Sequence record: PZ862964.1
From: a phage
Length of the DNA stretch: 64,000 nt
Direction: 5' to 3' (one strand)
Positions 2,348 through 41,280 of this stretch are shown here, in pieces (within the stretch, counting starts at the first letter, position 1; each line of letters begins with the position of its first letter). The position numbers and the translations under genes were made by a program. The notes under the pieces were generated by a model that saw only the letters and a program-made list of their open reading frames with translations, was not told the DNA's origin and made no database searches.

Positions 2348-2643
2348 TTAAACTATCAGCAGTAATATTATCTATTGGTCTTCTAGTTGGTTGTTCGACA
2401 AAGCCTCTAGAAGTAAATAAAGAAACAGTTCATCCTAATTGGCCTGTGCAAATAAAGTCATATGACGAAGCTAAACTATCTTGGCAAGTTAAAGTTATCG
2501 ATGGTAGAGCTTGGGTCGGTATGCCATTTGAAGATTCCCAGGAATTTCGTATTTGGCTTAATGATGTAAAACGATATGTACATGACCAGAAAACTATGAT
2601 ATGTTATTATCGTCAAGAGCTAAAAGAGGATAAATGTAAATGA
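2344..2643 (+). CDS. o-spanin (outer-membrane lipoprotein, T4 pseT.2/RzB-like)
   Basis: 99 aa; signal peptide with lipobox LLVGC (MIKLSAVILSIGLLVGCSTKP); ATGA overlap with preceding i-spanin ORF. Confidence 0.7.
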   Translation: MIKLSAVILSIGLLVGCSTKPLEVNKETVHPNWPVQIKSYDEAKLSWQVKVIDGRAWVGMPFEDSQEFRIWLNDVKRYVHDQKTMICYYRQELKEDKCK

Positions 2644-2864
2644 TTTCATGGCATCAATTTGAACATCTCAAAGGATTGATTTATGAATCCGAGATGGCTG
2701 CAATGATTTATGGACGCCAGATTCAGCGGTTAGAATCTTTACCTCCAACTAATGATGTTTTATTAGCTCAATCACGTGCTAATCTCAAAAATGAATATCA
2801 AAATAAGTGGGGTAAAGCATCTAAAGACCTACATGATTATATTCAATCATTAGTTGAGAAATAA
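2640..2864 (+). CDS. Hypothetical small early protein
   Basis: 74-aa ORF, ATGA-type overlap with upstream gene; same-strand tight packing. Confidence 0.55.
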   Translation: MISWHQFEHLKGLIYESEMAAMIYGRQIQRLESLPPTNDVLLAQSRANLKNEYQNKWGKASKDLHDYIQSLVEK

Positions 2865-2867
2865 TAA

Positions 2868-4074
<1,207 letters not shown>

Positions 4075-5333: not shown

Positions 5334-5563
5334 GTGAAAAACCGATTACTGTTAAAGAATTCCAAGAAAAAGTTAAACTATTTGCACAGGAATTAGTAAA
5401 TAAGGTTTCTGAACGATTTCCTGAAACATCGGTTCGTGTTATTACCGAAACTCCTCGTTCAGTATTAGTAATTGTGAATCCAGGTGATGGCGATCAAATA
5501 TCGCATCTTAAACTGGATTTTGATGGATTAGTTGAAGCACAAAGGGTGTATGGCGTACTATGA
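5327..5563 (+). CDS. Hypothetical small early protein
   Basis: 78-aa ORF overlapping neighbours by a few nt. Confidence 0.5.
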   Translation: MLSEKPITVKEFQEKVKLFAQELVNKVSERFPETSVRVITETPRSVLVIVNPGDGDQISHLKLDFDGLVEAQRVYGVL

Positions 5564-36387: not shown

Positions 36388-38012
<1,625 letters not shown>

Positions 38013-38021
38013 TTAAGCAGG

Positions 38022-38039
38022 ATGGGGATTTCTCCCCAT
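38022..38039 (-). other. Hairpin downstream of gene 19 (possible terminator or RNA element)
   Basis: atgggga-tttc-tccccat; second small hairpin ctgc-tttaa-gcag adjacent. Confidence 0.45.
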
Positions 38040-38044
38040 TCATT

Positions 38045-38536
38045 TTATTCCCAATAATCGAGAGCAAGAGTTACTTCAAAGGTTTGGATTTCATTGTTTG
38101 AATCCCAATCTAATTGAAGTTCACCCACGTTAGTAGGCCACAGACCTTTAATTTCAATTTCTTTTGTTACTGTTTTAGCGTCACGAGCATATTGACGAAC
38201 GATAGCGCTCTTTTTATACTCTGCAGGTTTTCCACCAGTAATTTCGTTTCCTTGTCCCGCAGCAATGCTTTGCCAATCAACGAACTTCTGGCGAGCATCA
38301 TGAGCTTCATCGTTCATTACTGTAACAGTCCAGTCATCGAATGTACGATCGCCTGCTACGTTAATTTTACGGTTCATAAATCCGACTGGAATTTTTTCTA
38401 CAATACCAGCTGGTAAAGCAGTAGCTTTACATTGGAACGTAAAATTTTGTCCAAGATAAGAAATTTCTACTTGGAATAAGTTAGGTCGAGCAAAATCACC
38501 AGATTCAAACGCTCGTGTTACATCATCTACAAACAT
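38045..38536 (-). CDS. 19: Tail tube protein gp19
   Basis: 163 aa, matching T4 gp19; synteny. Confidence 0.92.
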   Translation of the reverse strand: MFVDDVTRAFESGDFARPNLFQVEISYLGQNFTFQCKATALPAGIVEKIPVGFMNRKINVAGDRTFDDWTVTVMNDEAHDARQKFVDWQSIAAGQGNEITGGKPAEYKKSAIVRQYARDAKTVTKEIEIKGLWPTNVGELQLDWDSNNEIQTFEVTLALDYWE

Positions 38537-38550
38537 ATTAGCCTCTGTAG

Positions 38551-38558
38551 TATTTATA
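38551..38558 (-). promoter_or_regulatory. Late promoter TATAAATA for gene 19 (proximal)
   Basis: tatttata on +, 15 nt upstream of gene 19 ATG, RBS gagg between. Confidence 0.5.
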
Positions 38559-38609
38559 TCCCTATGTTTAACCTAGGGCATATAGAATTAAAGAATTAAG
38601 GATATAGTG

Positions 38610-38617
38610 TATTTATA
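38610..38617 (-). promoter_or_regulatory. Second TATAAATA motif (distal) directly downstream of the HNH-gene hairpin
   Basis: tatttata on + at 38610-38617, adjacent to hairpin 38619-38636. Confidence 0.45.
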
Positions 38618-38618
38618 T

Positions 38619-38636
38619 GGCCTGCCGAAACAGGCC
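38619..38636 (-). terminator. Hairpin after HNH endonuclease gene
   Basis: ggcctg-ccgaaa-caggcc immediately 3' of the HNH ORF stop on the - strand. Confidence 0.6.
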
Positions 38637-38643
38637 TTTAGAA

Positions 38644-39261
38644 TCATTCTAGTAAATCCCAAAGATCTACACTATTTCTTTTTGATTTTTCTCGGTTAGA
38701 TTCCCAAGTGATTATTTCTAAATTATTAATACCGCCAATTATTTTAGCAGGAATTAAATTATCAAAACCGTATTTGATAGATACCTTATGATCAAGTTGG
38801 TAAGCACCTTTTGTACCACACACTCCTATTTTATCAGCATTTGGCCATTTTGACCAAATTTTCTTATGCTTACGAGTTTCTTTATATACCAATGAAATAT
38901 ATTCACGCATTTCAGATTTATTTGGGTTCCATCTTGGATGATTTACGCCATGCATACATTCTACTGTTTTTCCTTTATTCGCGGAACCATATGAATTATT
39001 GCGCATTTTATCTTTATGACGGCAATCACGACAAATATCAGTGTTTCTTCCAATGCGTTGGTTATATTCAATTCCACATTTATCGCAACGGCATTTTACA
39101 TACGCGGTACTACCTTTAATGTCTTCAACTTTAACATCAATTTCATAATACCTAAATCCATGTTTAACCGCTCCAAGAGGTGTTAATTTATAACCCTTTG
39201 ATTGATAATGTTTAAAATTTGATGGTACAATTTTCACTTTAACAAACTTAGAAATAATCAC
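38644..39261 (-). CDS. Free-standing HNH homing-type endonuclease inserted between genes 18 and 19
   Basis: ORF-track ORF 38644-39300; likely start GTG 39261 with RBS gagga (alternatives ATG 39294, TTG 39300). N-terminal Cys cluster CRCDKCG...CRDCRH; C-terminal HNH-like core CGTKGAYQLDHKVSIKYGFDNL...NNLEIITWESNREK. Confidence 0.75.
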   Translation of the reverse strand: MIISKFVKVKIVPSNFKHYQSKGYKLTPLGAVKHGFRYYEIDVKVEDIKGSTAYVKCRCDKCGIEYNQRIGRNTDICRDCRHKDKMRNNSYGSANKGKTVECMHGVNHPRWNPNKSEMREYISLVYKETRKHKKIWSKWPNADKIGVCGTKGAYQLDHKVSIKYGFDNLIPAKIIGGINNLEIITWESNREKSKRNSVDLWDLLE

Positions 39262-39278
39262 TTGTTTCCTCGAGAATA

Positions 39279-39292
39279 GGGGCCGAAGCCCC
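39279..39292 (-). other. GC tetraloop hairpin directly after gene 18 stop
   Basis: ggggc-cgaa-gcccc; overlaps the 5' extension of the HNH ORF, arguing the HNH start is downstream of it. Confidence 0.5.
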
Positions 39293-39300
39293 ATAATCAA

Positions 39301-41280
39301 TTAACCTGCAAGACCAGTTAACTCATCGAAGTCTGCACCAGTAGCAGTTGCGACGAAATTCAAAGTAATATAATTTATACTGCGCGCCGGTTGGATGTAG
39401 AATGTTGCAACAAACTCATTTCTATCAATTACTGACGGAGTGTTATTTGTTGTATCGCAAACTACACGATATTCATAAATTCCACCGAGAGCTTTAATTC
39501 CCTGTAAGTACTGGGCAGTTTCTGTGCGGAATGATGAACGAGTAAACGCGTTGTTTAATTCGAACAAACGATATTTTGAACTACGTCCGATGTTCGTTTT
39601 CAACATATTAAACAGACGACGAACGTTAATACGATCAAATGGAGAAGGAACAGAAGTAGCTGTTTTATCACCATACAATACGTAACCATCACCACCTGTA
39701 CCAGTTACCGGGTTGATAGCTTCTTGGTATAAACGGTCGCGCTGAGCCTGGCGAGTTTCAATAGCCAGTTTAATAACGTTAAGAATCTGGCCACGATTAT
39801 AACCAGCTGGAGACATCCAAGTCTGAGATACGTTATCGGTTCTTGCGCATAAACCAGCAATATCAGCTGCTAATGGAACCCAACGATTCACATCATTATA
39901 TTTGTCATACTGATACTTGTAGTTACCATCAATTGCTGCGTAGGTTGAACTGATATTAAAGTTATTATCAGTGTATGAACCTGTTGCGGTTCTCCAATTG
40001 ACTAAGTTATCAACCGCACGAGTTACAGGAATTCCAACTACAGTTTCACGCGGAGGAGAGCACAATACTAAGCAATCTTGGCGAGCATCCCCAATTGAAA
40101 CGACGTGTTTTTGGACAGTAGATGCTGTTTCTAAAGATTCACCGGCACAAGAACCCGCAATAAACAGTTGAACATCAACGGATTCACGGTCAGCAAAGAA
40201 GTCCCAAGCTTCCATCAAATCTCCTGCTGTTACTTCAGCATTTGATGATAATCCACCAGACAGAGTTAAAATTCCAGAGAAGCCTTCTGGCCAGTTTTGT
40301 GCAGTTGCAAAAATATATTCTGAACCACCTTTTGCGAAAAAGTCATCGATATAGATGTTACTATCGTAAATATCTTTTTCACCACGCTTAGTTGAAAGAA
40401 CAACGCTTTGAACAATAGCATCATTACGACGAACTATAATAGCATACTGTGAATCAGTTTGTGGTCCATATCCAAACACTGCTTTAGCAGTAGATGCACG
40501 AGTACCACCACCTGGATAAATTGGGAGTAATGCAGAAGCTCCTTTTGCGTAGTCAGCTTTAGATACGATTTCAATTTCAATTTTATCGCCTAATTCGCCT
40601 GGATAAAGAGCTACTACTCCTGGAATTCCGTATTTTTTAAGATTTGTTTGAAAGTCAACCGCTGTCATAGCAGCTTCAGCATTTTCAATTTCAGCTAATA
40701 AAATACCAGAATCAGTAATAATTTTTCCAAGAGTTATTACTGCAGCTAAACCAGAGGAAGACGAAGAAATTTCCGCAGTCCAGTTAGAACCTAATTCCGG
40801 ATATTCACCGACTTCTTTCGCTTTAGCGATAATTTTTGCAGTAGGAATATTAATTTTCTTAATTTTTCCATCTGCGTCTACTTCAGTAATTTTACCTTCA
40901 GTTTCAATATCATCTGAAACATATTTGACCGTGATTTTATCTCCAACTGCATAGTTACTACCTGGGGTAGAAATTGTGTATTCAATATTACCAGCAATCG
41001 GAGATGAGTTTTTAGCGGTATCTCTATCAACAGCACGAACTACTCGTAAGTCATTTCCGTACTGCAAGAAATTCATCGCAGACATAAAATAGTCAGCAGT
41101 TTCAGCGGTTGGTTGACCAAAAGTATTAACTAAATCTACTTCATTTGTAACCTGTTTAATCTGAAAAGCAGGACCCCACTGGAATTTACCGGCCAAAGCT
41201 GCTGTACCAGTAGAGTTATTAACCACGGTGCTTTGAACCGTAGTTTCTTTGAGCTCAATGCCCGGAGATAATAAAGTCAT
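39301..41280 (-). CDS. 18: Contractile tail sheath protein gp18
   Basis: 659 aa, matching T4 gp18; synteny. Confidence 0.95.
   Translation of the reverse strand: MTLLSPGIELKETTVQSTVVNNSTGTAALAGKFQWGPAFQIKQVTNEVDLVNTFGQPTAETADYFMSAMNFLQYGNDLRVVRAVDRDTAKNSSPIAGNIEYTISTPGSNYAVGDKITVKYVSDDIETEGKITEVDADGKIKKINIPTAKIIAKAKEVGEYPELGSNWTAEISSSSSGLAAVITLGKIITDSGILLAEIENAEAAMTAVDFQTNLKKYGIPGVVALYPGELGDKIEIEIVSKADYAKGASALLPIYPGGGTRASTAKAVFGYGPQTDSQYAIIVRRNDAIVQSVVLSTKRGEKDIYDSNIYIDDFFAKGGSEYIFATAQNWPEGFSGILTLSGGLSSNAEVTAGDLMEAWDFFADRESVDVQLFIAGSCAGESLETASTVQKHVVSIGDARQDCLVLCSPPRETVVGIPVTRAVDNLVNWRTATGSYTDNNFNISSTYAAIDGNYKYQYDKYNDVNRWVPLAADIAGLCARTDNVSQTWMSPAGYNRGQILNVIKLAIETRQAQRDRLYQEAINPVTGTGGDGYVLYGDKTATSVPSPFDRINVRRLFNMLKTNIGRSSKYRLFELNNAFTRSSFRTETAQYLQGIKALGGIYEYRVVCDTTNNTPSVIDRNEFVATFYIQPARSINYITLNFVATATGADFDELTGLAG

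Follow-up and report, generated by a model that had tools for sequence, protein, structure and literature searches.

A putative HNH-like endonuclease gene with two mosaic alleles at the tail sheath/tail tube junction of T-even phages

Free-standing homing endonucleases have their model system in the T-even phages. The HNH representatives MobA-E and I-TevIII of T4 are proteins of about 200-250 aa encoded by free-standing or intron-borne genes in T-even genomes; they lie between conserved genes, are patchily distributed among relatives and combine an HNH motif with small DNA-binding modules. The target of MobE is a conserved gene next to its own, and the review of T4 mobile elements reports no element at the junction of genes 18 and 19 (PMC2988022). 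In Table 5 of a genome survey, one "other HNH" gene is given for T6 and none for RB3 (PMC2993671). The T6 gene that occupies this junction has been in GenBank since 1994 under the name ORF19.1, and its records assign no function. In a comparable case, SegH and Hef reportedly replace mobC and mobE in T4 relatives, as Sandegren, Nord and Sjoberg are said to have described in 2005. There, as at the 18/19 junction, different endonuclease genes or alleles share one intergenic slot beside a polymorphic conserved gene; however, the rival genes come from the GIY-YIG and HNH families, whereas the alleles described below have one catalytic domain and differ in the presumed recognition half. HNH enzymes of the HK97 gp74/GVE2 type form another group, being required terminase partners in cos-type packaging and universal in their phage group. 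A literature search found no experimental study of the protein encoded at the 18/19 junction. Most genomes list its gene as a hypothetical protein; elsewhere it is called gp19.1, homing endonuclease, HNH endonuclease or type II restriction endonuclease, and some records leave it unannotated.

The window analysed here is a stretch of 64,000 nucleotides of phage DNA (record PZ862964.1). Its source genome is a Tequatrovirus, with 99.2% identity to RB3 and ZCEC14 over positions 38000-39800, and it carries its late structural genes on the minus strand. Gene 18 differs from its T4 counterpart at 54 of 1980 nt and gene 19 at 4 of 492 nt. The two genes are spaced 764 bp apart, with one open reading frame (ORF) inside. 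The features of the locus, in the direction of transcription, are as follows.

39301-41280, minus strand: gene 18, tail sheath, 659 aa (Pfam Gp18_dom_I, Phage_sheath_1 and Phage_sheath_1C), the upstream flank of the insert
38645-39299, minus strand: insert relative to T4-type empty sites, 655 bp, replacing 7 bp (ACGGTGC)
39279-39292, minus strand: GGGGC-UUCG-GCCCC hairpin between the gene-18 stop and the ribosome-binding site of the ORF, from the sequence and a predicted fold, part of the insert
39259-39271, minus strand: Shine-Dalgarno motif GAGGA (39271-39267) and, after a 5-nt spacing, GTG start codon (39261-39259), read from the sequence
38644-39261, minus strand: ORF of 205 aa plus stop, the RB3-type allele of T6 ORF19.1, putatively an HNH-like endonuclease of the free-standing kind
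38619-38636, minus strand: native hairpin downstream of gene 18, common to T4, at the right edge of the insertion site, identical in all fetched Tequatrovirus junctions
38610-38617 and 38552-38559, minus strand: two TATAAATA late-promoter motifs, belonging to gene 19 and outside the insert, identical in T4 and all empty sites
38045-38536, minus strand: gene 19, tail tube (Pfam Phage_T4_gp19, E = 3e-16), the downstream flank of the insert

Judged by its conservation, the ORF is a real gene and not a chance reading frame, because its product has homologues with E-values down to 1e-137 and because pN/pS is low, at about 0.12 among RB3-type copies, indicating purifying selection. Between the window and phage phiC600P9, for instance, the gene carries 16 synonymous and 8 non-synonymous changes. 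The protein was found by tblastn in 248 phage records, 233 of which cover at least 80% of it, and belongs to phrog_5104 (E = 7e-91), a family of unknown function in PHROGs. Within the window a second copy of the family was searched for and none was seen. The longest version in the ORF list runs from 38644 to 39300, with a TTG start and 218 aa. Most likely, however, the true start is the GTG at 39261-39259, which gives 205 aa; it is preferred because GAGGA precedes it by 5 nt, because nearly all homologues have the N-terminus MIISK at this position and because the T6 record of 1994 likewise gives GTG as the start.

The T4 junction of genes 18 and 19 is a 116-bp spacer without an ORF, in keeping with the original prediction, which had no T4 gene here and proposed that a free-standing HNH endonuclease gene had been inserted. 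Alignment of 15 Tequatrovirus junctions, nine of them empty and six, including that of the window, occupied, defined the boundaries to the nucleotide. Empty sites all read TAAT-ACGGTGC-ATTCTAAAGG (in longer form TAAT-ACGGTGC-ATTCTAAAGGCCTG), and occupied sites read TAAT-TGATTATGGGG...GAATG-ATTCTAAAGG (in longer form TAAT-TGATTATGGGGCTTCGGCCCC...GAATG-ATTCTAAAGGCCTG). These boundaries are exact and identical in all fetched Tequatrovirus genomes. The ORF, its Cys cluster and HNH-like core, both hairpins and both TATAAATA motifs had been located correctly; the insertion point has to be moved. It had been placed between a gene-18 terminator and the gene-19 late promoter. Since the hairpin at 38619-38636 and both TATAAATA motifs are found downstream of the ORF and also occur in T4, the insert sits between the gene-18 stop codon, just past which it begins, and the native hairpin. 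The 39279-39292 hairpin is missing from empty sites and arrived with the insert.

The product has two motif-bearing segments, numbered here along the 205-aa protein.

39022-39093, minus strand: Cys4 zinc ribbon or treble-clef finger (C59, C62, C77 and C80) in the variable N-terminal half
38686-38802, minus strand: HNH-like beta-beta-alpha-metal core, residues 154-192 (D157, H158, N180 and N189)

Along with the Cys cluster, the product contains the core LDHKVSIKYGFDNL...NNLEIITWESNREK. Residues D157, H158, N180, N189 and K192 are invariant across 33 family members, and a [YF]Q[LVIM]DH motif is found in 147 of 184 collected relatives. We take YQLDHKVSIKYGF...NNLEIITWESNREK to match the DH-(about 20)-N-(8)-N-x-x-K spacing of HNH_4/Cas9-type HNH domains, in which Asn at the last motif position is normal. 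AlphaFold models of the protein were confident, with a pLDDT of 84.9 for the full length and, for the C-terminal domain (residues 97-205), a pLDDT of 87.4 and a pTM of 0.75. In the predicted structure, a strand at 154-158, a strand at 181-185 and a helix at 186-192 fall exactly on the HNH-like motif. The model thus has the beta-hairpin and motif-bearing helix that define the HNH/His-Me finger superfamily, and the positions of its general-base His, structural Asn and metal ligand are taken by invariant residues.

Sequence models gave a different answer. The Pfam search that had been proposed as a check was negative, with no HNH match to the ORF protein even at E <= 1, and the curated HNH models PF01844, PF13395, PF13392 and PF14279 do not recognize it. 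Nor was a significant HNH match obtained with Pfam for the family consensus or for the 33 relatives (a single HNH_4 hit with E = 0.078, a single HNH_5 hit with E = 0.22), or with NCBIfam for the ORF protein. A profile search against PDB sequences returned zinc-finger matches and no HNH, and Foldseek against the PDB found nothing for the model of the ORF protein. Among nine divergent relatives, eight have sub-threshold Pfam HNH_4 or HNH matches on the motif segment, the best at E = 3.5e-4 and 20.9 bits against a cut-off of 22 bits. The best structural matches to both models are Gme HNH (PDB 4h9d) and phage GVE2 HNH (PDB 5h0o), small HNH nicking endonucleases that align over 64-71 residues including the beta-beta-alpha-metal core. 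On this weaker and indirect evidence, the C-terminal half of the product is most likely a very divergent version of the HNH fold.

Two assignments to described groups were rejected. The T4 Mob family is excluded, as no Pfam HNH_3, NUMOD or AP2 domain occurs in the ORF protein or in the 33 relatives. Moreover, the product has no detectable sequence relationship with the Mob proteins and I-TevIII, and the Mob domain order is reversed here, the zinc ribbon being N-terminal and the HNH-like domain C-terminal. A terminase-associated HNH of the HK97 gp74/GVE2 type is excluded too, the gene being absent from T4 and from 336 of 443 classifiable Tequatrovirus records, all of them viable isolates; the likeness to those enzymes is limited to the fold.

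The Cys4 finger is presumed to be a DNA-binding module. C59, C62 and C77 are invariant in the family and C80 is nearly so. The region gives weak matches to Pfam DUF4379 in 8 of the 33 members (best E = 8e-4) and, in the PDB profile search, to the zinc-ribbon protein mS66 (E = 0.002). An exhaustive profile search put the family at 5,440 cluster representatives at E <= 1e-3. In many relatives the C-terminal domain is fused to HTH arrays, DUF7487 or other zinc ribbons. Such a modular build, with swapped DNA-binding modules, is typical of homing endonucleases.

What suggests that the gene is mobile is the comparison of genomes. Occupancy was typed with chimeric 155-nt queries that combined each gene-18 3' haplotype with each junction type (E <= 1e-64). 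By this typing, 443 Tequatrovirus records could be classified, 107 as occupied and 336 as empty, and the gene is hence present or absent at one exact site among near-identical genomes, the pattern expected of a homing gene. The haplotypes are defined by a short patch near the end of gene 18, and occupancy differs among them.

39352-39388, minus strand: gene-18 3' patch whose polymorphism is mostly synonymous, spanning -88 to -52 relative to the stop, with haplotypes a (window), b (T4) and c (T6)
Haplotype a (window type): 35 occupied, 70 empty, 33% occupied
Haplotype b (T4 type): 3 occupied, 246 empty, 1.2% occupied
Haplotype c (T6 type): 69 occupied, 20 empty, 78% occupied

Haplotype a pairs with the RB3-type allele and c with the T6-type allele, and the b haplotype of T4 is almost always empty. 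Empty junctions also occur with haplotype a, as in T2 and ESh31, and with haplotype c, as in RB14 and e11/2. The association between occupancy and haplotype is strong (chi-square P = 2e-47), though many records are near-duplicates and independence is overstated; shared ancestry, like co-conversion of flanking markers along with the gene, could produce the link. Differences between the window and T4 are crowded at this end of gene 18. The densest 40-nt interval, which starts 91 nt before the end of the gene and overlaps the patch, holds 11 of the 54 (Poisson P of about 3e-9), and the last 32 codons encode the same residues in both phages.

On these comparisons, the patch may be a flanking marker in linkage with the insert, or else a candidate for the target or the immunity site. 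As the sole determinant of cleavage or immunity it was rejected: 70 haplotype-a and 20 haplotype-c records are empty, and three haplotype-b records are occupied. The one of these three that was fetched, phage sb3, carries an intact RB3-type gene beside the T4-type haplotype, which means that the patch alone cannot set sensitivity or immunity. The sb3 protein has a sole change, K173E, to the family consensus residue. Candidate cleavage sites are both the junction TAATACGGTGCATTCTAAAGG and the patch at 39352-39388.

An equally clean polymorphism of the same kind was found in Jiaodavirus, a genus of T4-like Klebsiella phages. There, 40 records span the full query of gene 18, ORF and gene 19, and in the sampled remainder coverage is 63%, in two pieces and without the ORF. 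The insert again lies straight after the gene-18 stop, ahead of the native hairpin. Between three occupied and three empty genomes, sites -64, -61, -58, -43 and -4, within the 65 nt or so of gene 18 closest to the insert, track occupancy; the Ala-Arg-Ser codon pattern does not, which speaks further against the gene-18 patch as sole determinant. A scan of IMG/VR for the empty junction returned five loci, too few for statistics.

Beyond these two genera, a homologue lies directly 3' of the sheath gene in 9/9 contexts inspected, namely Tequatrovirus (two alleles), Jiaodavirus, Hadassahvirus, Winklervirus, Citrobacter phage Ci1, Aeromonas phage AS-zj, Vibrio phage VmeM-32 and Sinorhizobium phage phiM12. 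These represent four Straboviridae subfamilies and, in addition, phiM12. Acinetobacter phages are among the nine. A conserved orthologue in all T-even genomes including T4, coupled with no HNH match, had been named as the outcome that would speak against a mobile endonuclease. The ORF is not in all T-even phages, but the sheath-adjacent homologue in every context inspected goes half-way towards that outcome.

The most interesting point of the locus is a pair of alleles with swapped N-terminal halves, each tied to its own gene-18 haplotype. T6 ORF19.1 occupies the same slot directly after the gene-18 stop. Its insert agrees nearly completely with that of the window at both ends, over 60 nt at the beginning and roughly 300 nt at the finish, so that the two have hairpin, ribosome-binding site and GTG start in common; in contrast, it is linked to haplotype c of the gene-18 3' end, and the window's insert to haplotype a. 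Along the inserts of the two types, nt 1-60 are identical, nt 61-450 are about 45% identical, and identity is 90-100% from nt 451 onward. In the proteins, residues 21-135 of the window and T6 are 30% identical and the C-terminal 70 residues (136-205) 89%. For the window and Klebsiella phage Mexia the corresponding values are 60% and 70%. It follows from the alignments that the RB3-type and T6-type alleles are mosaic, with the catalytic half and the insert ends in common and a very different N-terminal half. As the two Tequatrovirus alleles sit in flanking DNA with 97-100% identity, the relations among the alleles clash with the phage phylogeny and lateral exchange is needed to account for them. 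In other words, the history of the gene is at odds with that of the host genome, as expected under lateral transfer.

Taken together, the most likely reading, and a reasonably probable one, is that the ORF encodes an HNH-like homing endonuclease of the free-standing kind, from an uncharacterised family. Its C-terminal half (about residues 100-205) would be a very divergent HNH (His-Me finger) nuclease domain, in which H158 would be the general base while N180 and N189 would serve as structural and metal-ligand residues, and the variable N-terminal half, a beta-hairpin plus the Cys4 zinc ribbon, would recognize the DNA sequence. When its phage infects a cell together with an empty-junction relative, the enzyme would nick or cut the relative's DNA, either at or near the 18/19 junction or within the conserved gene-18 3' end. 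The gene would then be copied into the recipient by T4-type recombinational repair, along with some tens of bases of the donor gene-18 3' end.

The main rival, rather unlikely but not far-fetched, is that the gene encodes an accessory nuclease resident in the T4-like block of tail and packaging genes, ancestral at the sheath/tube junction, repeatedly deleted in T4 and others, and kept elsewhere by selection. The benefit could be late degradation of host or competitor DNA, or exclusion of co-infecting relatives, and presence and absence would reflect loss and ordinary homologous exchange rather than self-promoted homing. The homologue directly after gene 18 in all nine contexts fits this account, as do the close packing on gene 19 in some genera (the gap is 3 nt in CBH8 and 9 nt in Mokit), the purifying selection with 233 of 248 copies intact, and the non-homing nature of the closest structural matches, 4h9d and 5h0o, which are phage HNH nicking enzymes. 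The 70 haplotype-a and 20 haplotype-c empty records could also be deletions. The claim that the gene is mobile and varies among T-even relatives stands only in part: 107 occupied and 336 empty records with exact boundaries bear it out, but a long-resident gene with repeated loss may also be at work. The constant sheath-adjacent site, the selection and the intact copies suit a useful nuclease gene of long residence no less than a selfish one, although the same pattern is equally compatible with a homing enzyme that targets the highly conserved coding sequence of the gp18 C-terminus.

Several observations nevertheless argue against simple residence. The empty sites of Tequatrovirus are all alike and carry a different 7-bp filler, with no ragged deletion scars. 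Alleles that are 30% identical N-terminally have identical insert ends within the 97-100% identical flanks, which requires lateral exchange. Jiaodavirus, a second genus, shows this polymorphism too, and the relatives show the swapped DNA-binding modules typical of homing enzymes. The two accounts overlap, given that homing enzymes exclude competitors too.

It is improbable that the gene was moved as a passive cassette by T4 recombination at short flanking homologies or stem-loops, as PeSL cassettes do with ORFans and with its own product uninvolved. Stem-loop-mediated shuffling is documented in T4-type phages (PMC2839356), the G+C-rich hairpins at 39279-39292 and 38619-38636 flank the insert, and homologous exchange could suffice where flanks are near-identical among relatives. 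However, the two hairpins differ in sequence, and PeSLs are cassettes with early promoters in hyperplastic regions, whereas the site here is in a late core block. Moreover, selection acts on the cargo, whose nuclease-like active site is conserved, and the gene keeps its place even among very distant genera that have lost DNA identity in the flanks. Least probable of all is that the product is no nuclease but a zinc-ribbon protein that binds nucleic acids, for example a late regulator, with a C-terminal domain that is merely HNH-like: no HNH model scores above threshold, Foldseek came back empty-handed and the last motif position is Asn instead of His, but the four catalytic-type positions are invariant in 33 members, the D-H motif is found in 147 of 184 relatives, and Asn at the last position is usual in HNH_4/Cas9-type domains.

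Returning to the homing endonuclease, a wider picture can be sketched that must be called doubtful. In it, an uncatalogued HNH-like family tracks the sheath 3' end across the T4 superfamily, and two alleles with swapped recognition halves compete for the slot, each with its own set of synonymous gene-18 changes, as weapons of marker exclusion among co-infecting T-even phages, in an arms race of target site against recognition domain. If the product is active, it would add a new and large HNH-like family, one that Pfam does not capture, to the T-even system. Its activity would help to explain partial exclusion and biased marker inheritance near genes 18-20 in T-even crosses, and the two alleles would be a natural pair for the evolution of specificity, in which one catalytic domain is joined to different recognition halves. 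The inconsistent annotation of the gene could likewise be corrected.

As for expression, one further motif was read from the sequence.

39372-39379, minus strand: TATAAATT inside gene 18, a 7/8 match to the T4 late-promoter consensus

This motif is present in haplotypes a and c and absent from haplotype b of T4, and might be a weak late promoter. As a required promoter it was rejected, being absent from sb3, where the ORF is intact, and from the Klebsiella-phage copies. Reading of the sequence showed no TATAAATA directly upstream of the ORF, and a scan of the coding strand found no intrinsic terminator, neither hairpin being followed by a T-run. The 39279-39292 hairpin leaves the ribosome-binding site free, and the region has a folding z-score of 0.1. 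With no late promoter of its own directly upstream, no terminator and an unblocked ribosome-binding site, read-through is the simplest reading, and the ORF is probably transcribed late from gene 18.

Even in very distant phages of the T4 superfamily, including Sinorhizobium phage phiM12, Aeromonas phage AS-zj and Vibrio phage VmeM-32, the sheath gene is followed by a homologue of the ORF, which encodes a putative HNH-like endonuclease and lies between genes 18 and 19 in the window. The homologue in phiM12 is located as follows:

L025 (phiM12), 2501-3073: ORF homologue, positioned after the sheath gene

In phiM12, this homologue is followed by a gene for a NosD-like protein instead of the tail tube gene. 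Similarity of the AS-zj and VmeM-32 homologues to the ORF product is confined to the C-terminal domain, and their N-terminal parts are different. A C-terminal domain of the same type is fused to the Pfam domain of unknown function DUF7487 in six larger relatives (P0163, P0183, P0127, P0129, P0160 and P0170), and DUF7487 may serve this endonuclease family as a further DNA-binding module. According to the original prediction, the window lacks the seg genes that T4 carries at genes 23/24 and uvsW/inh.

A candidate late-promoter motif was found within gene 18, 110 nt upstream of the GTG start codon of the ORF:

Window 39372-39379, minus strand: TATAAATT, candidate late-promoter motif, matching the T4 late-promoter consensus at 7 of 8 positions

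The motif is produced by synonymous codons of haplotypes a (the window) and c (T6) at the 3' end of gene 18, and is absent from haplotype b (T4).

Annotation of the ORF and its neighbours varies among related records. Those of RB5, RB6, RB7, RB9 and RB10 contain it at 99% identity but leave it unannotated. In Phi_KR8 (L033 910-1221), the annotation covers a short fragment of the ORF, although the reading frame is intact over its full length from the GTG. In other records, gp18 carries a wrong label ('holin', 'long tail fiber proximal subunit' or 'tail tube protein'). Two CDS are annotated for the portal gene of Ptacy1496 (L006 4289-5853), suggesting a frameshift or sequencing error. MG010123.1 ('Staphylococcus phage SAJK-IND', 32 kb) and PV654520.1 ('Pseudomonas phage vB_PSGBLB0006') contain DNA 96-98% identical to this T4-like region of the window; these records are probably mislabelled or contaminated.
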